From assembly GCA_963575745.1 (NCBI GenBank), contig CAUYUJ010000270.1, forward strand, positions 186,001-250,000: a stretch of 64,000 nt of DNA. The letters are read 5' to 3'. Under the pieces are notes generated by a model that ran no database searches, was not told the origin of the DNA, and saw only the letters and a program-made list of their open reading frames with translations. The position numbers and the translations under genes are program-made. Shown here piece by piece: positions 5,981 through 18,563 of this stretch. Origin of the DNA: Prorocentrum cordatum (Eukaryota). Numbering within the stretch: the first letter of the stretch is position 1; each line of letters opens with the position of its first letter.

Positions 5981-7738
5981 TTGGTATCGTTAATGCCAGG
6001 CGCAGGTCTGAGGCTGAATGGTAAATACTTGAATTTCCCGAGCTGACGTCTGCCGGGATAATATCACTGACACGATGCGACGTGGGTTCGGAAAAAATGA
6101 AGGTAACAAGCAACCGTGTTGATCGAGAACCAAAAGCCAAGAGCCCGAGAACATGCGAGCCACGGCGTGGCCTAGCGCGCCGTGCGCGACGTCGGCGTTC
6201 GGCATGCACTCGTTGACCCTCCAAAACGCCGCAGATCTGCGGTCAAACGCACCTGAAAACGCTACATCTCCTTGGCTCTAGCCTCTGCCCTTGGACTAGG
6301 CGTCAGGATTGAGCTACTCGGGCTGACGTCGAAGAGTGTGGGCGGGAAAGTGAAGCATGCGACAGAAACAGACCCGTCCCGGCCGCAGCAAGGAGGTCCC
6401 ATGTACGCACAGCCCACGCAAGCTGGGGCGTGACGCAAGGGTGATGCAGCACCTGCTTCGGGAACACAGGCGACGCCTCCAAAGTAAGCCCGCGCCGCCA
6501 AAAATGCAGCAGGTGGGGTCCGCGCCGCTCGCGGGGAGAAATTCGAAGCGGAACTGGAGGCATGGGACGCTGTCCCATTCTTGTCGCATTGGAATTTCGA
6601 TATCGGTCTTCTGTTGGGAAATTGTCCATCGTCGGAAACCGTCTGCTTGAGCCACAGCTGTGGGAACAATATGTGGTAGAGAAACTTGGGAGGACATGGG
6701 GAGTGAGGGCCACGGGCTGTTTTCTTCATGATGCGGAGGCTGGGAAGCAAGGTGAGATCAGAGCACGGTTGTCTTCACCATCTTCAGCAGCTTTCCATAC
6801 GATCATGCTGTTGCAGTGACAACGTTCCGCCAACGGGAGACATACGTCACCGGAGTGTCTTCTTAGAGCGGACTGCTTCTTCAGGAGAGGTCGTGGACAA
6901 CTTTCTCTACAAGGAGGTGGCGCCAAAGCCGCTGCCGTCCCCTTGAGGAAGGAGGGGGCAAACTGGAAGATGAGGATGATGAAGGGACGATTCGCCGTCG
7001 CAGCAGCCGCAATCGAGAGGCCGCCGCCGCCATCAGCCCTCGCCACCTATAGCTTTCTGAAGCCAGTGATTTGTCAAGATGGGTGGGCGAAGAAGGCGGG
7101 CAGAGGCAGTGAGAGAATGTGCGAGGGGAATGGGCGGTGATCAGTGTGCGTGCGGGGCGGATGGCACGGGCAAGGTGACTGCGAAAAGGGGACAATGGCG
7201 TAAGCTCTGAGCGCACGGCTTGGGAGGTGCAATCAGGGCCGCTGGCTAGGAAGGCAGCTGCAGACCAGGTGCGCCGACGAATGCTTAGCAGCAGCGTTCG
7301 AAACTGTTCGGAACAGGACCGCTATCCAGAATGAGCATGGACCAAGTGAGTTGACAAGTGGCCCAGCAACAATGAATAAAAGAGGCAAGATCGCTGACAA
7401 GATAAACAGCCGTCGACCAAGCGCGTCGACAGGAAGCCGGCGGCAGCGCGGGGACGGCTAGCCCCCCCCCCCCCCCAATTCTTGGGGCAGGGCGCTTGCG
7501 AGCGAGCAGAATCAGCAAGACGTGTGAGGAACGAGCGAACGAGACGAGCCGACCCCAGCGACCCTGCAGAAGCTCCTTTCGCGAGTGCGAATCCCACCAG
7601 CCCTCTGGGTACTTGTCCCACCTCCTGCCTTTCCCTGCTCGGGGTGTGACTGATCTCGTGACCGGCCGGCGTTCGCGTGCTCCCGAGCGGTCGCTGCGCT
7701 CGGCCGACTGCGACGCGTGGAGATCCACGGTGAACGCC

Positions 7739-10321
7739 ATGACGGGCGTCGAGGAAGAAGCTACAGAGAAGCGGGCCAACCTACACGCGAGTGCGGGGAC
7801 GGACGAGGACGCAGTGACTAGGGGGGAGCTCAGAGGACTCATCGGGGACATTGTCAGGGCGACGATGCAGAAGCAGTCCAGGAGCTCGAGTGCTGCGGCA
7901 GCGTCCAGCTCCGCAGCCGCTGGCAAGCCAGACGAGAAGGGCGAGGATCCGTGGCAGAGCTCGGATCCGTGGACAGCCAGCGGCGGAGAGAGTTGGCAGA
8001 GTCGGTGGTGGCAGGCCGACTCGAAGACCAGCTGGGAGGATCGGCAGCCCGATCCGAAGGACGGCTGGCAGAAGGACTCAGGCTGGTCTCACGACGCCGC
8101 CTGGACCCGCGGGACCGGGTCCCGACCCGAGCTGGCCAGCTGGTCCGGCAGCTGGGCAGGAGGAGGCGGCGCCTGGTCCAAGGGAGACTACTCAGACCCA
8201 CCTGCATGGCCAGGATGGGCACACTTCAGAGCATGGAAGAAGTCGCTCAGACGCTGGAATGCAAACACCGACGTGCCAGTCTGGCGTCGCTCCGAGAAGT
8301 TCCTTCGCCTGTTCGACTGGGCTTTCCAGGCGAAGTTCGAGGACATTCAGGAGCATCGTCTGACCGACGACGGCTGGATCGACATCGTGCTCGGCCGCAT
8401 GGACACCATGGCGGGCGAGCGCGAGGGAGATGACCTTCGCCGTGCAGGTCGACGAGCCTTCTTCGAGGCCAACCGCGAGGCGAAGGAGTCGCTGATCCAG
8501 TTCGTCATCCGGCGCGACGCCCAACTGCAAGAAGCTGAAGGACATGATCTATGGATGTCGCCCAAGCTGAAGGGCCTGCTCTTGGAGGAAGGCGCGTGCC
8601 TGTCCGCCCAGGGGCTCCAGAACTTGAGGACGCTCACCCTCGGGAAGCTGGACTACGAGAACGTCTCGTGGGCGCTCAAGCAGATGGACTCCGGCGGCAC
8701 GGAGCGTCTGCTCCCAGGGCGCGGCGCTGGAGCGATGCTGGCTGACGCGACGACTTCTGAGGGTTTAGGGGCTAGCGAGGCGTTGCCTGGTTTTCAGTCC
8801 CCCCTCCTCTCTCCTCCTCCCCCGTGGTCGCAGGGTCGGTCAGAGGGTACTGGCGACTTCCCGGCAGAGGACGAGGAGACTTTCTACGACGAAGACGACG
8901 AGGAGGAGGCCTCGGACGAGGAGGACATCGAGGCTCTGCTGGCCGAGCTCGACGATCTCGACGTGTCCGAGGATCAGGTGGATGAGGTGCTGGCGACGCT
9001 CGAGGCCAAGAACACCAGGACCTGGAAGCAGAACAAGGAGCTGAAACGTGCTGCTCGTCAGGACCGGGAGTATTTTCGGCCCGACTCCCGGGCGCCTCGA
9101 CCTCCTCGGGCACATCCGGCAGGCCGTCCAGGACGCGGCGGAGGCCGCGGGGATGGCGCCGGCGGTCGAGGCGGACGCGGCCGTGGCGGTCGTGGGTTCG
9201 ATCGACGACGACTCACGAGGGAGCAGCTGATCAAGGTGACACGCTGCGGCATCTGCAAGCAGAAGGGCCACTGGCATCGGGAGTGCCCAGAGAAGGACGG
9301 ACCCAAGGATCGCCGAGCTGTGAAGGATCACGGCCGAGGAGCATCCGCGTACATGTTCTCAGGCATCGTCGGCGAGGTCGGCGGCTCCGAGTTCGTGGCG
9401 ACGGTGGAGGCGGGCGCGGGCAGCCTTCCAGCTTGGGAGCAGGCACAGCTGGAGATCGAGTCGAGCGCGGTTCTCCTCACCACGTCCGCCACCCAGGGGC
9501 TCGTCGACCCAGGTGCCGGCAGCGACCTCGTGGGAGTCGGAGCGCTCAACCGAGAGTCTCGAGCCCTGGCAGAGATCGGGTTGAGGTACGTCGAGATACC
9601 CCAGGCCGACCGCCCGCTCAAGGCGGCCCACGGCGTCGGTGGAGCCGCGCGCGTGATCAATGTCATTCTCTTTCCGCTGTGCCTAGGCCAGACTTTTGGC
9701 ATCATAGAGACCACGGTGCTGGCGGACAATGTTCCGCACATCCTCAGCGTGAATCTTTTGGAGTTTCTCGAGGCCGTCATTGATCTGCCCAGGAACAGCA
9801 TGCAACTTGGGCGCCTAGGTCAGAAGGTGCCCCTCTGCCGTCTCAATTCAGGTCATCGTCTCGTGGAGATCGTGGGGCCTCTCGACCAGGAGGCAGTAGC
9901 ACCAGCAGCTGCGATCAAGAGGTACCCCTTTTTGCGTGCTGACTCGTTTCAGACTGCTGCAGGACAGTTCCCAGAGATGTCGGACGTTGGCGTGGTGACC
10001 GGCTACATTTCTCTCATCATCACCGTCGTCTTGCTGCTCATGCTGCTGCTGCGGGTCACGAAGGGGAGCTCAAGGGCCAGGACCAGGACTCAGAGGACGT
10101 CTAGGCCCAGGACTCAGAGCATCAGTTCGGTCGTCCACTCCAGGAATCGGGTCGACATCCAATCCGAGCACCAGGACGACCAATCGAGGGAGCTCCTCCA
10201 GTCATGGGCTCAGCTGAGCCCGAGCCAGGTTTTAGGATCCGTAGACAAGCTAAGGTGCAGAGGCCGAGGAGGTCTTCGAGAGGAAGGGTTCCCGAGAGCC
10301 CAAGAAGATGGACTGAACTGA
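7739..10321 (+). CDS. gag: Gag-protease polyprotein, running in frame into a small transmembrane ORF
   Basis: Within the 941-aa ORF 7496-10321; first ATG at 7739. Trp-rich N-terminus, gag-like PPAWPGW segment, RGG stretch, CCHC knuckle CGICKQKGHWHREC (9245-9286), aspartic protease LVDPGA (~9500-9517) followed by VPHILSVNLL. Confidence 0.88.
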   Translation: MTGVEEEATEKRANLHASAGTDEDAVTRGELRGLIGDIVRATMQKQSRSSSAAAASSSAAAGKPDEKGEDPWQSSDPWTASGGESWQSRWWQADSKTSWEDRQPDPKDGWQKDSGWSHDAAWTRGTGSRPELASWSGSWAGGGGAWSKGDYSDPPAWPGWAHFRAWKKSLRRWNANTDVPVWRRSEKFLRLFDWAFQAKFEDIQEHRLTDDGWIDIVLGRMDTMAGEREGDDLRRAGRRAFFEANREAKESLIQFVIRRDAQLQEAEGHDLWMSPKLKGLLLEEGACLSAQGLQNLRTLTLGKLDYENVSWALKQMDSGGTERLLPGRGAGAMLADATTSEGLGASEALPGFQSPLLSPPPPWSQGRSEGTGDFPAEDEETFYDEDDEEEASDEEDIEALLAELDDLDVSEDQVDEVLATLEAKNTRTWKQNKELKRAARQDREYFRPDSRAPRPPRAHPAGRPGRGGGRGDGAGGRGGRGRGGRGFDRRRLTREQLIKVTRCGICKQKGHWHRECPEKDGPKDRRAVKDHGRGASAYMFSGIVGEVGGSEFVATVEAGAGSLPAWEQAQLEIESSAVLLTTSATQGLVDPGAGSDLVGVGALNRESRALAEIGLRYVEIPQADRPLKAAHGVGGAARVINVILFPLCLGQTFGIIETTVLADNVPHILSVNLLEFLEAVIDLPRNSMQLGRLGQKVPLCRLNSGHRLVEIVGPLDQEAVAPAAAIKRYPFLRADSFQTAAGQFPEMSDVGVVTGYISLIITVVLLLMLLLRVTKGSSRARTRTQRTSRPRTQSISSVVHSRNRVDIQSEHQDDQSRELLQSWAQLSPSQVLGSVDKLRCRGRGGLREEGFPRAQEDGLN
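9977..10321 (+). CDS. Putative small single-pass membrane protein (accessory ORF A, 114 aa)
   Basis: MSDVGVVTGYISLIITVVLLLMLLLRVTK: ATG, ~20-residue hydrophobic stretch, then a basic tail. Preceded by a pyrimidine-rich tract ending in TTTCAG. Same frame as gag and overlapping the pol frame. Confidence 0.4.
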   Translation: MSDVGVVTGYISLIITVVLLLMLLLRVTKGSSRARTRTQRTSRPRTQSISSVVHSRNRVDIQSEHQDDQSRELLQSWAQLSPSQVLGSVDKLRCRGRGGLREEGFPRAQEDGLN

Positions 10322-10356
10322 CCGTTTCCATGATAATAGTGGCGGCAGTTGTCTTT

Positions 10357-10379
10357 TCCGTAGCCCACCTCGGCTCAAG
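10357..10379 (+). promoter_or_regulatory. Dinoflagellate spliced-leader-like sequence inside the retroelement
   Basis: TCCGTAGCCcacctcGGCTCAAG versus DinoSL DCCGTAGCCattttGGCTCAAG: first 9 and last 8 nt identical. Confidence 0.75.
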
Positions 10380-10453
10380 TCTAGCCTTTCTGGTGTTAGC
10401 TTTCTCAGTTCACGAATTTCTTGTGGTCCAGCAACAGCGCCTGGCCAGACTCG

Positions 10454-12079
10454 ATGGTTCTCGGAGGGCTGCTCCTGGCGTGGTTGGCGGTGCATCCTGT
10501 GCTCGGCGGAAAGAAGAAGGGAGAGTTCGGGACGTCGAGCAAGGGAAACCAAGGAGCGTGGGCCACTCAGGCGTTTCTGCGAGCACGCCAGTCTCGTCTC
10601 AACGGGGAGCGTGCTCCTGGAGAACCCGACTCGGACGGCTACGTCTGGGACAAGCCCTCGGCGGAGGAGACAGCGGCGGCGGCGGCCGAGAGCGACGCCC
10701 TGGAGGCGGCGGCGAGGCAGGCCCAAATCCAGGCAGAGGCGGATCAGGCAGACCGCGGGCCACCCACCGGAGGCGCGTCGTCCTCAGGGAGTGGTCGGGC
10801 AGCGAGCCATCAGGCCCGGCCGGGCCAGCCAGGGCCTCAGCCGCCCTTGCCTCCAGAACCACCTCCGGGGTACACTGGCCCATACCCCATGGTGGTCGAC
10901 CGATCGTTCAACTCCCAGGCGGCAGCGGCAGCGGCGGCAGCAGCAGTGCCTCCAGCAGTTCAGCAGGCAGCGATCAACACTCCGGTGGCATCGACCCCGC
11001 CACCAGTGAAGCCTCCTCCTCCAGGAACGATGCACATGCGGGGCACCACGGCGCTGCCTCCCCTGACGGGGCCCGCTGCAAGCAAGCCACCGCCCAAGCC
11101 GCCACCTACGCAGCTGGCATCGACTCCCGAGCCGTCGATCCCAGCGAAGCCGCCTCCCGGCCCAGTCAACGAGTGCGAGCATCCAGAGTCGTGCATCCGA
11201 TACTACGGGAACCAGCACGGGTCAGGTTCGAGGTGCACCCGGTGCCAGACCCGACTGGTGTGGATTCCCCGGGGCCAGGGGATGGCAGCGTGTCAAGAAC
11301 CACCGCAGTCAGCTGCCGAGGCAGCGCGGTCAGCGGCGGCATCGGCCCGGCGTGCTGTCAACATCCTGCAGGAGAGCCCAGGGTTCCGAGAGGGCGGGGC
11401 TGCCCTAACTACGGTGAACTCCCTGGGCACGCTGCTTCAGAGCCTACAGTGGCAGCTGCAGGAGATACCAGAGGGGATCCGCGCCTTCGGCCGGGTCCAG
11501 GAAGTGCTGGACCGTATGATTCAGGTGGCGACCGACACGCAGAGTGCGCCGACTCAGGTCCAGGAGGGACTCATGCAGATTCACCAGGTCCTGATGGGAA
11601 TCCAGGGCCACTTGGTGTCCCTCGAGGACTTCGGCGAGAAGCTCGACACGATGGAGTCCAGGATGCTCAACCTCGAGCAGAGCATGGGCCAGCTGGGATA
11701 CATCATCATGCAGGTAGGCCAGGGCGTGGCCGGACTACTTCACGTACATGGAATTCAGCAACTACATGGTGGTCAGGCCCCGGACGACCCCTGGGCGCCG
11801 GGCCCGACAGGGCCCATCGAGCCCAGAGGAGAAGGAGACTCGTCAGGCAGTGGCGGACACGGGCCTCACGAGGGCTCGAATTTCCAAGATGGTGGAGCAC
11901 AGCCGTCTACCACGACGCCGCCGAGCGACAGCGGCGGACACGGCGAGGAGTACAACACGACGCTCGCCACGACGACGGCCGACCCGAGCAACTGGTGGCC
12001 CCTGCCACCGATCCCGGAGGTCGCGACCGATCAGGAGCAGGAGTGGGAGCTGGTCAGCAACCAGGGGGAGCTCTACTGA
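10454..12079 (+). CDS. Accessory ORF B (541 aa from ATG 10454): signal-peptide-like N-terminus, Pro-rich region, CxH...GNxH...CxxC finger, heptad coiled coil; overprinted on the pol frame
   Basis: ORF 10421-12079 reads as a well-formed protein (MVLGGLLLAWLAVHPVLG; CEHPESCIRYYGNQHGSGSRCTRCQTRLVW; LQSLQWQLQ...LDTMESRMLNLEQSM), while the overlapping pol frame here has shifted-frame composition rich in R/G/A/P/H. Confidence 0.7.
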   Translation: MVLGGLLLAWLAVHPVLGGKKKGEFGTSSKGNQGAWATQAFLRARQSRLNGERAPGEPDSDGYVWDKPSAEETAAAAAESDALEAAARQAQIQAEADQADRGPPTGGASSSGSGRAASHQARPGQPGPQPPLPPEPPPGYTGPYPMVVDRSFNSQAAAAAAAAAVPPAVQQAAINTPVASTPPPVKPPPPGTMHMRGTTALPPLTGPAASKPPPKPPPTQLASTPEPSIPAKPPPGPVNECEHPESCIRYYGNQHGSGSRCTRCQTRLVWIPRGQGMAACQEPPQSAAEAARSAAASARRAVNILQESPGFREGGAALTTVNSLGTLLQSLQWQLQEIPEGIRAFGRVQEVLDRMIQVATDTQSAPTQVQEGLMQIHQVLMGIQGHLVSLEDFGEKLDTMESRMLNLEQSMGQLGYIIMQVGQGVAGLLHVHGIQQLHGGQAPDDPWAPGPTGPIEPRGEGDSSGSGGHGPHEGSNFQDGGAQPSTTTPPSDSGGHGEEYNTTLATTTADPSNWWPLPPIPEVATDQEQEWELVSNQGELY

Positions 12080-12444
12080 GGTCTCCCACTCTGTCTCAGG
12101 CCAGCATTTTAGAGCTGTCATCGTGCTTTGTGCAGTGTGGTTGCGCGAGACCCCATGCTGCCAGCACGACTTCTGGCGCCGAGAGCGCAGTGACTGAGAC
12201 GCAGAGTTTTGCTCCTCCTCCTCCTCCTCACTCCAGGCCCCCTCAGGCTCCTAGGGCTCGGAAGCGACCGGAGACCCTGGAGCGAGGGGCCCAGTGGACC
12301 GACGGGGACCGTCACAACGACGACCACGAGGTTGCGTGTAGCAAGAGGGCCCGAGAGGCTCTCGAACGTAGGGCCTGCGAGCAGCTAGGTGAGACGCTTG
12401 CCACCGAGGGACCTTTCGACCGAGGGCGTCGGGCCAAGACGGCG

Positions 12445-13071
12445 TTCATGGAAGTTTTCTCCCCGCACCGTAAGGCCCCTGAGGTGGCCAGGCGTGGGGC
12501 CCCAGTGGCCTCGGATCCCAGCTGGGATCTCAAGACCGGGTGGGATGCGTCTAAGAAGTCAGAAGTTCGTCGCCTCTGGAGGCGCATTAGGGAAGAGCAG
12601 CCCGAGACCATATGGCTGTGCTCGGAATGTCGGGTGTTCTCTGCGATCAATCGTTTAAATCGTCATCGGGTCGATCCGATCGCGTGGCAGAAATCGGTGA
12701 CAGCCGGTCTACGCGATCTAACTCTGTGCATGGAGATAGCCCTCTTCCAACACAGTAAGGGGCGGTACTTCATCTTCGAGCATCCCCTATACGCCTCCTC
12801 TTGGGACACGCGTGCTGTGCAGCTCGTGCAAGGGCTCGAGGGAGTCAGACGGCTGCGCATCGACATGTGTGCGTTCGGACTTCAAGTAGACAAGAGGGGG
12901 CCCAACAAGAAACCAACCGGCCTCCTCTCCAACCACCCCAGGGTGCTCCGGGACCTCGATGGCCACCTATGCACGGGGGGGCACCAGCATGCGTTGCTCG
13001 AGGGAGGCCATGTCACCACCAAGGCCAGCAGGTACCCCCCAGCCTTAGTTAGGAAGGTCGCCCGAGCCGTG
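12445..13071 (+). other. C5-cytosine DNA methyltransferase-like domain inside Pol
   Basis: Ordered motifs: FMEVFSP (I, divergent), WDLKTGWD, IWLCSECRVFS (IV, candidate catalytic Cys at 12628), FIFEHP (VI), DMCAFGL...KKPTGLLSN (VIII-like), ASRYPPALVRKV (X-like). Confidence 0.7.
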
Positions 13072-16000
13072 TCCGAGCAGTGGAGTGGGGCGGGCAACCG
13101 AGGGCCCTCCACCTGGGCGGAGCTGGCGGAAGATGCCTTCCCGGAGGATGATCTGGGTGATGCGGAGGTCGGATCGGAAGTAAGCGACGAGGAGGGACTC
13201 GACGAGCCAGAGACCAGACCAGCCCCACGTGAGAGGAAGACCGTCCCAGAACCAGAGCCCTCCGAGGAGGAGAAGCGTCTGGTCTTCAAACTCCATGTGA
13301 ACATGGGACATCCGGAGAATCGGAAGTTCCTGCGAGTCCTCAGAGCGGGTGGAGTCAAGAGACATGTTCTCACATGGGTGCGTGATCTTTTCAGATGTTC
13401 AGAGTGTGCCGAGAGGTCGAGAAGCGGCACTCATCGCCGAGTTGCCCTCCCCAGGACGTTCCGTTTTAATCACATCGTGGGGGTGGATCTCTTCTGGGTG
13501 GACTTCCAGGGAGGCACTCACGGGTTTCTCAACATCGTCGATCACGGTTCCAACCTCCAAGTTTGCGCCAGGGTAGCCGACGCTCGTGCGGCAACCGTGT
13601 GGCGAGCTCTTGTCCTGGCCTGGATTCGACCTTTCGGGGCCCCACACTATCTTATCTCGGACGGGGGCTCGGAGTTTGCTGGGAGGTTTGCGAGAGGAAC
13701 CGAGCAGTGGGGTGTCTATCACCATGTCTGCGATGCCGACTCACCGTGGCAAAACGGCCGTGTCGAACGTCACGGGGGTTGGGTTAAGGACCGACTTAAG
13801 GCCGAGATCGAGTCGGGATCGGCTCTCCCCGCCACGCTGGACGAGCTCGACGAGCTGGTGTCGGAACTGGTCGCCCACAAAAACCGTTTCTGGCATCGTG
13901 GAGGGTTCTCCCCCCTCCAGCTGGTTTTCGGAGAGAACCCTAGGCTTCCCCACGACCTGCTGTCCGACGACAGTAGGGGACTCCCAGGATGGCAAGATGT
14001 GGTGCGCTCCCCTATGGAGCAGGACGAGGCTGGTGCGGAGTTTGCTAGATCCCAGAAGATTCGAGATGCTGCGCGTCGTCTTGCCATCGAGGTGACCTCT
14101 CGGGATCAGGTCAGCCGAGCCTCCCGGGCCAGGACTGCGACGACCAGGACCTTCTCGCCGGGCCAGTGGGTGTTTGTGTGGAGGCACATGTCTCGTACTT
14201 CCTCCAGGGCCGATTCCCTGGGACGACGCCGGGATGGTTGGGCTGGTCCGGGCGTCGTGGTCCTCCATGAAGCCGGGACTGTTTGGGTTGCCGTCCGAGC
14301 GCGCCTTTGGAAGTGTTCGCCAGAGCAGATACGTCTGGCGAGTTCGGACGAGGAGTACGGATTGCAGCTTTCTCAGGATCCCAGGTGGCAGGAGTTATTG
14401 CAGCAAGCCAGGACTCGTCGGGCCTCGGCCGTGGACGTCCAACGAGAGGGAGCCCCGCCAGAGGACGCCTGGGACCGACCTCTGGGCCAAGAAGAGGATT
14501 CGGCCCCTCGTGTTGCGGGCCCTCCGGGCCCCGAGCCAGGTGGGCCAGAGGCCCCGGTCCGTCGTGAGAGCCCCTCGGTCCCGGGGCCCCCGTCGGGCAC
14601 GATTCGGGCGGCTGCTTCCAGGGCCTTTCGGGCTGGGTCCGAGTTGGGGCAGGAGTCTCACGCAGGTTCTGATGTCGCGCAGGCTGGCAGCATCCGCACC
14701 AGGCTTCCATCGATTGCCGAGAGCGAACCATCGACGGGAGATTTGTCCAGAGAAGTGACGCCAGGGAGAGAGGAAGGAAATCCCGGTCCCTCTACTGACG
14801 CTCCTGCTCCTTTGTCTTCCCCTCTCCCGCCTGTCGCCCCTCCTTCCACTGTTTCCCCTCTTTCGCCTCCCCCTGAACCTCCTCAGGCCACGGCGGGCTC
14901 GGCACCTCGGCCCCGAAGGGTGCTGACTCAGCCGGAGGACACGCCTTGGTGCATCCGCGCCCGGGCCGAGGCAGCCCGAGCATCCAGCTCGCCGCCAGAG
15001 TTCAAGCCGGCGAAGCTGGAGTCAGCCGACCCGTCGTCCTCGTCTCCGTCCGCCCCTCCGGTCTCCAGTGGTAGTGGTGGTCCTCCTCTCTCTCCTCCTC
15101 CGGGCCTCCCCGCTCCGTCTCCTACCCCAGGGCCGGGGCCCGGGACCAGGATCACTGCCGGCTCCGAGCCGCGCGTGTCAGTTGCCGATAAAGTCCAGGA
15201 GATCGAGGCCGGACGGGCTCGTGCCCGGTCACGCTCTCCCATGAGAGATGAGAGTTTTTCCGAAGGAGTGTTTTGGGTGGTTCCCGGGGCCGACGGCGTC
15301 GCCACCGTCCCAGCTGAGCAGCAGGAGCCGACGAGAGCCGAGGAGCATGACGGCGGCATCTTCGCCGCGAGCCGAGGCGGCGAGGTCTCGCTGAGAAATC
15401 TTTCTCCGGCCGACCGGGCCAAGTTTGAAGTGTCCGATGCTAAGGAGTGGGAGGCCATGAAGGCGACAGGTGCGGTAGAGGTGGTGGCCCCAAGCAAGGC
15501 ACGAGTCATCCGTCGCGAGCAGCCAGACCGCATCATCTCGAGCCGGATGGTCCGCCGCTGGAAGCCCCAGGAGGGCACCTTCGCCGCCCCCGACGCCAAG
15601 TCGAGGTGATGCGTCCACGGGCATAAGGACCCTGACTCCGGAGCCCTCGAAATATATGCCCCCACTCCTCAGACGTCGTCAATCATGATGTTCATCCAGA
15701 TAGCCATGAGCCTGGGTCTTCTATGTGATATCGCCGATGTCAAGAATGCTTTCTGCCAATCGGATAGAATGCATCGAGCACAGGGCGAGATCTACGTAGA
15801 GCCCTGTGAGGGGATCGTGCTAGAGCCCGGATCCCTGATTAGGCTGTTGGTCAATGTCTATGGTTTGAACGATGCCCCTATGGCCTGGAGGCGTACCGTT
15901 GTCAAGTATTTGGAGGCCCATGGGTTTGTGAGGTCCCTGCTGGAGCCCTGCTGGTGGATGCGCTACGATGACAAGGGGCGCATCGCCAACATGATACTGC

Positions 16001-17604
16001 TGGAAGTAGATGACTTCTTCATCGGGAGCTCAGACCAGGTCTCCCGGGACTGGATTAGGGGGGTTCTGGAGTCCAGGTTCAAATTCGGGAAGTATCGGGA
16101 TTGCCAGGCGGGCACGGTAGACTTTGCAGGCCGAAGGATCACCGTCGCCCCAGATAAGGCAGTGATCGACATGGAGAAGTACATTTCAGAAGAGATCCGC
16201 CCTCTGTCCATGTCCAAGGGGCGCCTGGCTCGCAAGGACTCCCCCCTGGAGCCTCAGGAGTTCAAGGCACTGCGGTCGCTCGTATACAAGTTCAATTGGT
16301 TGGGCCGTGAGGTCCGACCCGAAGCCGCAGGTGTAGCCAGCATCCTGGCCAGCAAGCTGAACCAGGCCAGGACCGGGGATGTGATCACGGCCAACAAGTT
16401 GGCTCGCCATCTGCGCTCTACGGCTTCCAGGGGACTCACTGTGTGGCGACTCGACCCAGACAGGATGGCCTTTTTGTCTTTCTCGGACGCCGGTGGCATT
16501 GGCTCCACCGACGGCCTGGATGACGAGCGTGGGCTGCCGGTCGATCCCACACAGGGAGCTTGGATGGTCCTGGCGGCCGATCGATCTGTGTTGGACAACC
16601 GTGCAGTCCGGGCTTCGATTCTAGGTTGGAGGTCGTCCAAGCTAAGACGAAAGGTGCCATCCACACTGCTGGCGGGAGATACGCAGGCTTTATCCGCAGC
16701 AGTTGCAGAAGTAGAGTTTTTACAGATCATGTATCGGGATGTGGTCTTCCACGATGTGGACGCTCCCGATTGTCGTCGAGCCTCCGGACCATTTACAACC
16801 GTGCTGCGACGAGACTGCTCTCTCGGATCTCGTGAGAAGCAGGTGCATGTGGTCGACGCCAAGTCGATCTACGATACGATGCAGAAAGAGGGCAATGCAT
16901 GCGCGCGGGACCGGCGCACGGCCATTGACCTCGCCATCATCTGTGAGTCCCTGGAGCGAGCTCGTGGCCATGTTCGCTGGATCCCACACGGGCGGATGCC
17001 AGTGGACGCTCTCACCAAGGAGGACGTCACGAAGTGCAATGCCGCTTTGTTCGATTTAATGTCCCATGGCCGCCTGATTTTAGTCGACGAGAGCTCAGAG
17101 GTGGCGAGACGCCGCTCCGAGCCGCAGCTCAAGAGTCGATCACAAGCAGCTTCGAGAGAAGAACTCGCTCGGGAGTCTCAGCCCACATGGATCCAGTTCC
17201 TGTCGGGGAGTTCTGCCGGTGGTGGTAGTAGTGGTGGTGTCGGTCCTCCTCCCCCCTCCTCTCTCTCCTCAGCTGAATCATCTATGCGCAGTTTGCCCTT
17301 GCCATCTCCGCTCTTCCAGTAATAATTTTCTCGTGTACAGTTTCTGTCCTTTCTTATCCCCTCTCCGTTCAAGTAGAGAAGGGGGCCGTTCCAGCGCAGG
17401 AACGGATAGTTGCTTTTAGTTGAGCCCAAGAGGGTGCTAAACCTAGGAGAAGTCGGACGGGTGTGACTGATCTCCAGAATTTACGTATTAGGTTTAGCAT
17501 TTGAGATCTTTACCTTGGTAGTCCTACCGAGTTGCAGCGTGTGCTCGGTGTACTGTTACCCTCTCTGGCTCAAGCCCAAAAACGTTCATCCAATCCTGTG
17601 CTGC

Positions 17605-18563
17605 CACAGGGGGGTGAACATCCCCCCCCCCACCCCTCCCTGCGTCTGGACGGGCTCCCCCGCGAGGTGTCAGAGGGTCCGTGTTGGTCCAAGATGGTTC
17701 CAAGAGGGCTTCCGAGCGCAAGATGGCTTCCAACATGGCCCAAGACAGTGGTAGATGGGCCAAGATCGCCTCCGACACACGTCCAAGAGGCCTCAAGACG
17801 ACCCCAAGACGGTTGCAGGTGCCCTCCGAGGCTTCCGACGACCCCCCAAAAATGCCAAACTCATTCAAAAACCTAAGGACAATCAATGTGTTGTGCCTTC
17901 TCGCTATTTCGCCTCCGATGGGCTCTTCAAGCCTCAAAATGGCCCAATGACGTCCCAAGATATCCCCAAGAGGGGTCCGAGAGGGCCCCAAAACGGCCCC
18001 AAGAGCGCTCCAAGAGCGGACCAAGAGGGCCCCAAAACTGCATGTTGAGCCTCCGAGGGGGGGGGGCCAGGAATTAAGGACCCCCCTCTTTTTTAGCGAA
18101 AGGGTCCAAGACGGCCCCACGAGGCCCCTCAGGCATCTCACAAGAGCCACAAGAAGGCACCCAGACCCCCCAGAAGAGCCCCCCAAAGGCCCGAACACGC
18201 CCCCAAAGAGCCCTAAGGAAAGGCCCTAAGAGGACCTCAGGAGAGCCCCAAGAAAGAGCCCCAGGAGGCCCCAAGAGGGGCCCAAGATAATACCAAGAGG
18301 GCCCCAAGATGCCTCCCAGTTTCGGAACGCACGATAGTTTAATCTGCAAATCAGTCCAACAGACATTGCAAGTCATCGAAACACCCCTCGCCCATCATCG
18401 AAGCACCATCGTAGCTTGCATCGGTTTCCATCTTAAACTCCAATGCGGGAAGCTATGTGTGATGCTTGTTTTCTCGAAGACGGCTGCGCGACTGCATGCG
18501 TCCTGCCGCCCCTGATTCACCAACTCCCCTGCTGATCGTTTCTGGATGGGCTGGTGGCGATAC
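17605..18563 (+). mobile_element. Non-autonomous Helentron-like element, copy A (5' truncated, 3' end split by an insertion)
   Basis: CCAAGA/GGCCC-rich body homologous to copies B-D; ends ATCGTTTCTGGATGGGCTGGTGG; the rest of the end is at 18846-18878. Confidence 0.6.

Follow-up and report, generated by a model that had tools for sequence, protein, structure and literature searches.

What allows about 1.6 kb of a retroelement to stay open in two reading frames, and where does the gene in the second of these frames come from? Both questions are raised by a Ty1/copia-type retroelement (G+C content ~0.6) that occupies region 7400-17700 of a 64,000-nucleotide (nt) stretch of DNA from Prorocentrum cordatum (GenBank assembly GCA_963575745.1, contig CAUYUJ010000270.1, positions 186,001 to 250,000 of the forward strand), referred to below as the window. 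The classification of the element follows from its reverse transcriptase (RT), which belongs to the Pfam family RVT_2, and from the domain order gag - protease - integrase - RT - putative RNase H, in which the integrase match (Pfam rve) is below the curated cut-off. Between protease and integrase there is an open reading frame (ORF) of 541 codons, ORF B (10454-12079), which shares the frame of gag-protease (frame 2; codon starts 2 mod 3) and lies wholly inside the long frame that leads to integrase (frame 1; codon starts 1 mod 3; 10105-15609). This arrangement had been reported in a preliminary description made from the DNA letters alone, which was right about what it described and off by one base in its positions; the ATG that it placed at 10331 is at 10330, and is in frame 1. 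ORF B is preceded by a near copy of DinoSL, the dinoflagellate spliced leader (SL). The explanation that we favour, and hold as a whole with moderate confidence, is that the element is dual-coded and has copied back its own SL-capped ORF B message.

Judged by its composition and its relatives, ORF B is a genuine conserved gene. Its G+C content at the three codon positions (0.71/0.56/0.74) can be set beside that of gag-protease (0.66/0.53/0.74) and pol (0.68/0.57/0.67); the same DNA read in frame 1 gives 0.74/0.71/0.56. In 300-nt sliding windows the frame-2 signature extends from 9000 to ~12150 and is followed by the frame-1 signature, with the switch right behind the ORF B stop. Only over the Pro/Ala-rich linker (10800-11250) is the signal ambiguous, and frame-2 periodicity is strongest over the helical domain, where the G+C content of codon position 2 goes down to 0.34.

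In a search of all representative proteins, 23 match ORF B at E<=1e-3 (18 at <=1e-10 and 3 at <=1e-30), with identities of 32-100%; restricting the search to proteins of near length gave 1 match, and no match was found among longer proteins. The sources of 20 of the 23 matches are 5 Prorocentrum cordatum gene models, which are also the closest named database proteins, 13 EukProt fragments, and 2 proteins encoded on short contigs. The conserved block of the family alignment (A1) is C.HP...(I)RYYGNQHGSGS.C..C..RL.W.PR, and further conservation is seen in QSAA.AAR, AALNTVN..LLQSLQWQL..PEG.RAL and EDFGE.LD; A1 also keeps a moderately hydrophobic helix (GQLG.M..Q.G..) and, in part of its members, an acidic W-E tail. 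Parts of the motif are missing in the gene models P0019, P0020 and P0022, which suggests decaying transposon copies, and P0003/P0026 are chimeric Prorocentrum cordatum models, composed of gag, the tail of ORF B and a piece of pol from another copy. A tblastn search of the window with all family proteins returned this single locus. The tail itself, W-E-[LIY] (12029-12076; EQEWELV in ORF B), recurs in the distant members P0011, P0024 and P0025 (DISWEIL, HDWEYPEDQ, QGWEYPEDQ) and could act as a short motif for docking.

Thirteen of the looked-up relatives (15 proteins when two further members of their clusters are counted) belong to a EukProt set whose label names a green alga, Pyramimonas sp. 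CCMP1952. These proteins are among P0004-P0018, P0027 and P0028, and one of them, P0006, is 98% identical to the N-terminus of ORF B. The element itself, like the rest of its relatives, has a dinoflagellate character, and the CCMP1952 data set may contain dinoflagellate sequence or carry a wrong label.

Frame 1 contains no stop codon over the 559 codons of the stop-to-stop frame of ORF B. When the codons of ORF B are shuffled, 10.6 frame-1 stops are expected and 0 of 20000 shuffles are stop-free; when synonymous codons are shuffled the expectation is 9.8, again with 0 of 20000 stop-free. Since T is depleted before AA/AG/GA codons across the element (ratio 0.35 in gag-protease, 0.51 in pol and 0.66 in RT), we also ran a shuffle that keeps every dinucleotide formed by position 3 and the following position 1, which gives 5.2 expected stops and P(0) = 0.0014. 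High GC3, which the preliminary description gave as a caveat because it lowers the number of stops in the shifted frame, therefore does not by itself account for the dual openness. For comparison, gag-protease, pol and RT read in the same alternative frame contain 14 stops (971 codons), 33 stops (1175 codons) and 18 stops (570 codons), respectively. The 57 T-ending codons and the 94 AA/AG/GA codons of ORF B are nowhere adjacent in that order, and none of its 17 T/G junctions is followed by A. In the mirror test, in which frame-1 codons were shuffled, 7.3 stops are expected in the ORF B frame, 0 are observed, and 0 of 5000 shuffles are stop-free. Both frames are open beyond what composition would give. 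The product of frame 1 over ORF B has the composition of a filler (63.5% Arg, Gly, Ser, Pro and Ala taken together, no Met, 3% Leu). We read frame 1 across ORF B as a polyprotein spacer that would be kept stop-free and on which a conserved accessory gene would be overprinted, i.e. as probable dual coding.

Seven public sequencing runs, none of them an RNA run, share words with the stretch (best word share 0.19), and related DNA was available as contigs of four public runs that cover parts of it. In run X1, 742 contigs align to the stretch and together cover every one of its 30 bins, also across ORF B; we conclude that the family has many copies and that ORF B belongs to it. The variants considered here are 40 differences out of 1107, the best supported according to the tool, and 12 indels out of 27. 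Four of these differences are in ORF B; three of them leave its protein unchanged and alter the frame-1 residue, and one alters both. The two in gag are both synonymous in the gag frame, and of the 34 located from 12366 onwards, 20 are silent in frame 1 and only 4 in frame 2. The two indels of this selection that fall within ORF B, +3 (GAC) behind 10561 and -18 at 10803, are both multiples of three, and the first corresponds to an extra Asp in fragment P0006. One X1 contig (~93% alike over 9926-10329) has an extra G behind 10240, by which gag-protease would, in the sequence context of the window, be fused directly to frame 1. Two more diverged contigs have loose ends in the region: that of X1 (30 nt before 11201) reads N-C-Q-H-P-H-H-A-I-K in the ORF B frame versus E-C-E-H-P-E-S-C-I-R in the window, so that C, H, P and I are kept, with 1 of 9 residues identical in frame 1; that of X3 (behind 11703) reads M-L-Q-Q-I-G-Q-G-V-A, as in P0014, versus I-I-M-Q-V-G-Q-G-V-A in the window, with 4 of 10 identical in frame 1 (both loose ends translated by hand). 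In small counts, all of this points the same way, namely to residues that are conserved in ORF B and appear to be free in frame 1 while that frame stays open. None of the pattern matches obtained in metagenome contigs (196 with a denser family alignment, 103 with the single ORF B protein) or in viral contigs (92 with the family alignment) was confirmed.

The near copy of the leader is a 23-mer, TCCGTAGCCCACCTCGGCTCAAG, and it is the only place in the window where the two halves of DinoSL are found with a 6-nt gap between them (0 of 100 dinucleotide shuffles give a match). Compared with DinoSL as given in passages of PMC6050394 and PMC5585692 (DCCGUAGCCAUUUUGGCUCAAG), 17 of 22 bases are matched; the first 9 and the last 8 are kept, and the core has CACCTC in place of ATTTT, which makes the 23-mer 1 nt longer and bears out the earlier report of an altered core. 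Relict leaders have been defined by at least 9 contiguous DinoSL bases (passages of PMC5585692); here 9 bases (TCCGTAGCC) and 8 bases (GGCTCAAG) are separated by the expected distance with 1 nt added. Between the end of the 23-mer and the ATG of ORF B there are 74 nt, as already stated in the preliminary description, and this interval contains no ATG; a distance of 50-100 nt between relict and start codon corresponds to the usual length of a 5' untranslated region (UTR), according to passages of PMC6050394. The AGs behind the pyrimidine-rich tracts of the interval could serve as splice acceptors. In frame 1 the relict reads S-V-A-H-L-G-S-S, and its TAG (10361-10363) shuts the ORF B frame upstream. 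Altogether three frame-2 stops separate protease from ORF B (TGA 10319, TAG 10361, TAG 10397), and ORF B is therefore not a continuation of gag-protease. Because it has the full 5' end and lies 74 nt before the ATG, as in retroposed dinoflagellate genes, the 23-mer fits a relict DinoSL that would be the trace of a reverse-transcribed trans-spliced RNA. It probably records an RNA that started there and was once copied back into the element. The alternative offered in the preliminary description, an SL-capped RNA captured by the element with pol kept open through it, agrees best with these hallmarks and is largely supported.

The 23-mer had instead been proposed to mimic the SL as a working device. 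That it is such a mimic, or the remnant of an SL RNA gene, providing a leader in cis or a TTT(T/G) promoter, is in our opinion very improbable. Its similarity to DinoSL is high, and a basal promoter function by way of TTT(T/G) has been proposed for relict SLs (passages of PMC5585692 and PMC6050394). However, the ATTTT/TTTT core, which is part of the Sm site as well as the proposed promoter motif, is exactly what has been replaced, and the TAG of the leader closes the frame of ORF B. In SL RNA genes a GT donor stands behind a leader exon that has an AUUUUGG core of Sm type. The 23-mer has no intact AUUUUGG core and is followed by TC instead of a GT donor, thus it is not an SL RNA gene. Moreover, an internal, uncapped copy of the leader is unable to supply the cap that trans-splicing adds.

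Two further observations concern leader-like sequence and its surroundings. The 8-base GGCTCAAG occurs 8 times in the window versus 3.85 expected (2 of 100 shuffles reach 8), and TGGCTCAAG in the 3' non-coding tail, which equals the last 9 bases of DinoSL, is possibly a second, more worn leader relict, being alone near chance level. The T-rich DNA around the relict SL encodes in frame 1 (10330-10428) a strongly hydrophobic segment of 33 residues, MIIVAAVVFSVAHLGSSLAFLVLAFSVHEFLVV, with a mean Kyte-Doolittle value over 19 residues (KD19) of ~2.1; it may be a by-product of the pyrimidine-rich leader/acceptor region or a true membrane-like segment of the polyprotein.

We suggest the following scheme. 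The ~1.6 kb between protease and integrase would be read in two frames. Intact members of the family would make a single gag-protease-spacer-X-integrase-RT polyprotein by way of frame 1 (X being a conserved domain between spacer and integrase), and selection would keep frame 1 free of stops so that ribosomes reach the X domain, integrase, RT and RNase H. ORF B would be translated from its own AUG, which would be the first AUG of an SL-capped subgenomic mRNA produced by SL trans-splicing at an internal AG; where DinoSL is added at AG acceptors, such trans-spliced expression would be the natural route and is plausible. RT could copy this trans-spliced RNA to its very end and then jump to a co-packaged full-length element RNA, and the template jump would leave behind a relict SL with a complete 5' end. 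The simplest source of the copied RNA would be the element's own subgenomic ORF B message. The stricter proposal that ORF B is today made from an SL trans-spliced subgenomic mRNA, that its 541 codons are overprinted on an essential spacer, and that the relict SL is the fossil of this very message, we put forward tentatively, with distinctly less confidence than the scheme as a whole.

The copied RNA could also have come from the host. A cellular SL-capped mRNA for a zinc-ribbon/coiled-coil protein would then have been co-packaged and have recombined between protease and integrase, and the polyprotein frame would have been cleared of stops later; whether or not ORF B is of use to the element today would be left open by this reading. 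Capture from the host would explain the relict DinoSL with its full 5' end and 74-nt leader, which resemble those of retrogenes, the seemingly "older" coding composition of ORF B over a "younger" filler in frame 1, and the distant relatives P0024 (1882-nt contig) and P0025 (1498-nt contig), which share only the zinc motif and the tail and could represent a free-standing gene. It would, however, require two non-homologous junctions and an insert that pol tolerated at once. Neither of the two marks of a retroposed host RNA, a parent gene or a 3' poly(A) remnant, was found: there is no run of A behind the ORF B stop in 12080-12480 and no free-standing parent among the ORF B matches. This lowers the probability of a captured host retrogene, not that of a copy made from an SL-capped RNA. 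The matches are multicopy, lineage-restricted and in several cases decayed, as expected for a gene carried by a transposon, and none comes from the proteome of another dinoflagellate. We therefore consider host capture unlikely and prefer the element's own message, which takes one template jump versus two junctions with immediate tolerance by pol.

Several points weigh against dual coding followed by the copying back of the element's own message. Control regions have ~0.77 of the stops predicted by the junction-preserving null, which in the harshest scaling leaves ~4 stops expected over ORF B and P ~0.02. The openness of frame 1 is known from one copy, that in the window, in which gag-protease and frame 1 are unjoined, and inspection by eye revealed no canonical slippery heptamer in 10105-10321 (nor a canonical -1 slippery heptamer at the ORF B stop). 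Among database proteins of 1008-3210 amino acids (aa), the length range that was searched, none matches the frame-1 translation, and hence no annotated polyprotein runs through it; as a sign that frame 1 has no relatives, this is weak evidence. Variants within ORF B amount to four sites, picked by the tool as the best supported. Directly upstream of the relict SL there is no AG, and ORF B is not followed by a poly(A) remnant; the own-message and the host-message routes to the SL are both hypothetical. Finally, the hydrophobic stretch at the N-terminus is less hydrophobic in the paralogue P0027 (W10R).

Some of these points would suit an element without dual coding. ORF B could be a separate middle cistron or a former in-frame domain of the polyprotein, and integrase-RT could be made otherwise, e.g. 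from an AUG of its own near 12448 on a processed RNA, the openness of frame 1 being due to codon-pair bias and luck. Such a reading would agree with the element-wide depletion of T before AA/AG/GA and the lowered expectation that it may entail, with a frame 1 that resembles non-coding filler over ORF B, and with the unmatched frame-1 translation and the unjoined gag-protease of the window copy. Yet the absence of stops is significant even under the junction-preserving null, and frame 1 stays open over another 116 codons (10105-10453) outside ORF B. The extra G at 10240 would join gag-protease to exactly this frame, and the selected indels that lie in the region keep both frames. Read-through from protease in frame 2 would have to cross the three stops listed above. 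We judge both the separate or former in-frame status of ORF B and the separate production of integrase-RT to be improbable, somewhat more so than capture from the host, and retain dual coding.

What might the ORF B protein do? From the N-terminus, it is composed of a hydrophobic stretch (KD19 1.77), a Pro/Ala-rich linker, a zinc-ribbon-like motif, a domain of five helices and an acidic tail that contains W. The hydrophobic start (called signal-peptide-like there), the Pro-rich linker, the Cys/His finger (a conserved C-x-H ... C-x-x-C) and the long helical stretch mentioned in the preliminary description are all present, and the GYIIMQVGQGVAGLL segment is indeed weakly hydrophobic (KD19 1.11). 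The usual KD19 threshold for a membrane span is ~1.6. An AlphaFold2 model based on a 21-row alignment has a mean predicted local distance difference test (pLDDT) score of 57.7, with values of 58-83 for helices 287-437 and ~90 for a helix at 70-100; apart from these and the zinc motif the model is disordered. Pfam searches gave nothing at E<=0.1 and rows at chance level at E<=1, and comparison of residues 230-445 with the Atlas gave no usable match. Foldseek, which the preliminary description had recommended as a check for a fusogen fold, found no match at E<=0.001 for this model of modest mean pLDDT. The best hits of VIA-align 2 were syntaxin-type and designed helical bundles with Z of 10-10.8, under the noise level of ~13 that this tool has for helical bundles, and a profile search of the PDB returned assorted coiled coils only.

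The same data bear on the proposal that ORF B is an env-like protein, i.e. an envelope or fusogen that would give the element an infectious, virus-like stage. The hydrophobic N-terminus, the long helical region with its conserved, moderately hydrophobic helix, and coronavirus spike heptad-repeat constructs among the weak PDB profile matches (E 0.004-1.8) are what could be quoted in its favour. However, the spike matches are mixed with designed coiled coils, chemoreceptors and SNAP-25, and thus reflect coiled-coil composition only. The structural searches yielded nothing beyond generic helical bundles, the hydrophobic helix falls short of the membrane-span threshold (KD19 1.11) and is followed by ~100 disordered residues, and the N-terminus is not uniformly hydrophobic in paralogues. 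In addition, ORF B is situated between protease and integrase and not, as a separate ORF, downstream of pol. We see hardly any chance that ORF B is an envelope protein. Our best guess is an oligomeric zinc-binding factor, which would be tied to particles or nucleic acid.

The coordinates of the element are collected in the table. Self-BLAST of the window revealed no pair of long terminal repeats (LTRs) and no second copy around 7400-17700. Contigs of runs X1, X3 and X5 link position 17600, via 73 additional letters, to 7657, which fits an LTR or a head-to-tail junction in other copies. A direct repeat of 16 bases, GGGTGTGACTGATCTC, was noticed by eye at 7632-7647, just ahead of the 5' join point 7657, and at 17459-17474 in the 3' tail; it may be the remnant of a terminal repeat. 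As the window copy has one base fewer than its relative at 10240 and a TGA at 15607, it is probably defective; it is also without an LTR pair in the window. Domain X (~230 aa) has no match in Pfam or among PDB sequences. In the Atlas it is related to 30 unnamed clusters, with scores of up to 0.96, on which ground we regard it as a genuine and widespread family; among named clusters, that of C5 DNA methylase (PF00145) comes closest at 0.85, a weak lead. The AlphaFold model of domain X, made from a single sequence, has a pLDDT of 38.7, too poor for fold searching.

Table. Positions in the window of the retroelement, ORF B and associated features
Feature	Position	Strand	Remarks
gag-protease stop-to-stop span	7406-10321	+	terminates at TGA 10319-10321
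gag-protease ORF	7739-10321	+	frame 2; first Met 7739
CCHC knuckle CGICKQKGHWHREC	9245-9286	+	weak Pfam zf-CCHC_2, E 0.029-0.084
Aspartic-protease-like DPGAGS	9506-9523	+	from translation
Overlap of gag-protease and frame 1, both open	10105-10321	+	place where translation would need to change frame
Frame 1	10105-15609	+	1834 codons open, leading to integrase
Relict DinoSL 23-mer TCCGTAGCCCACCTCGGCTCAAG	10357-10379	+	search with halves and published DinoSL
Leader between relict SL and ORF B ATG	10380-10453	+	pyrimidine-rich tracts with AG at 10398, 10407, 10430
ORF B	10454-12079	+	541 aa, frame 2 (gag frame); stop-to-stop 10400-12079
Zinc-ribbon-like motif of ORF B (C241, H243 ... C260, C263)	11174-11269	+	three short beta hairpins; AlphaFold2 pLDDT ~94 for residues 241-270
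Five-helix domain of ORF B (residues 287-437)	11312-11764	+	AALNTVN, LQWQL and PEG.RAL motifs; weakly hydrophobic GQLGYIIMQVGQGVAGLL helix
Frame-1 pol domains proper	from ~12300	+	downstream of the Arg/Gly/Ser/Pro/Ala-rich spacer across ORF B
Domain X, conserved	12442-13140	+	between spacer and integrase
Integrase catalytic core	13483-13746	+	Pfam rve, E 1.8e-05, 25.4 bits, under curated cut-off 32.6
Integrase motifs	DHGSNLQ at 13540; SDGGSEF at 13657	+	from sequence
Single in-frame TGA	15607-15609	+	separates integrase from RT
RT-RNase H ORF (putative RNase H)	15610-17322	+	same frame as integrase, after the TGA
Copia-type RT	15646-16194	+	Pfam RVT_2, E 1.7e-15, 57.7 bits, exceeding cut-off 31.6
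TGGCTCAAG in 3' non-coding tail	17566-17574	+	equals last 9 DinoSL bases

None of the three components, relict DinoSLs, additional ORFs in copia elements and overprinted genes, is new in itself. Relict DinoSLs mark retroposed genes that arose by "mRNA recycling" (Slamovits & Keeling 2008, as cited in passages of PMC6050394 and PMC5029490; Song et al. 2017, in passages of PMC5585692), and the present case resembles them in that a DNA-encoded remnant of the 22-nt leader is found at the distance of a 5' UTR (74 nt) ahead of an intronless coding sequence. In those genes the core TTTT is the part kept best, according to passages of PMC5585692 and PMC6050394, whereas it is lost in the 23-mer. The relict described here differs also in being inside the polyprotein ORF of a retrotransposon, where it is open in the polyprotein frame and would be translated with it, in preceding an overprinted gene, and in having no known parent. 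Overprinted genes of viruses and retroelements combine an ancestral frame with a later one whose product is disordered. ORF B and frame 1 likewise are two long frames on the same strand, one of them normal and with relatives, the other of low complexity and apparently constrained mainly for openness; unlike in those genes, the overlap is complete and 541 codons long, the "younger" frame is the essential polyprotein, and the host of the overlap is a eukaryotic LTR retrotransposon. Sireviruses, too, are Ty1/copia elements with a protein gene beyond gag-pol. Their extra ORFs are located after pol and do not overlap it. In contrast to the env-like genes that constitute the extra ORF of Sireviruses within the copia superfamily (PMC3414828), ORF B lies between protease and integrase, in the other frame, and has no envelope feature that passes a test. 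A narrow full-text literature search retrieved no description of an internal relict leader combined with a 541-codon gene fully overprinted on a polyprotein, and a narrow search for overlapping or env-like ORFs in dinoflagellate copia elements found nothing relevant.

The family of ORF B, with its zinc ribbon and helical domain, corresponds to no Pfam family, and the public gene models that match it (e.g. P0003/P0026) are transposon fragments and not host genes. If the stricter proposal is true, the element would be, within the limits of our narrow literature search, the first retrotransposon known to use the spliced-leader system of its host for a subgenomic message, and its overlap would be among the longest complete gene overlaps in eukaryotic mobile elements. 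It would also provide a clear eukaryotic example of overprinting by the essential frame, which would be the younger of the two. Provided that both frames are used, the element would have found a way to express an internal extra gene in a trans-splicing organism without giving up its single polyprotein ORF, and relict leaders within such elements could serve as a record of the RNA species that they have produced.

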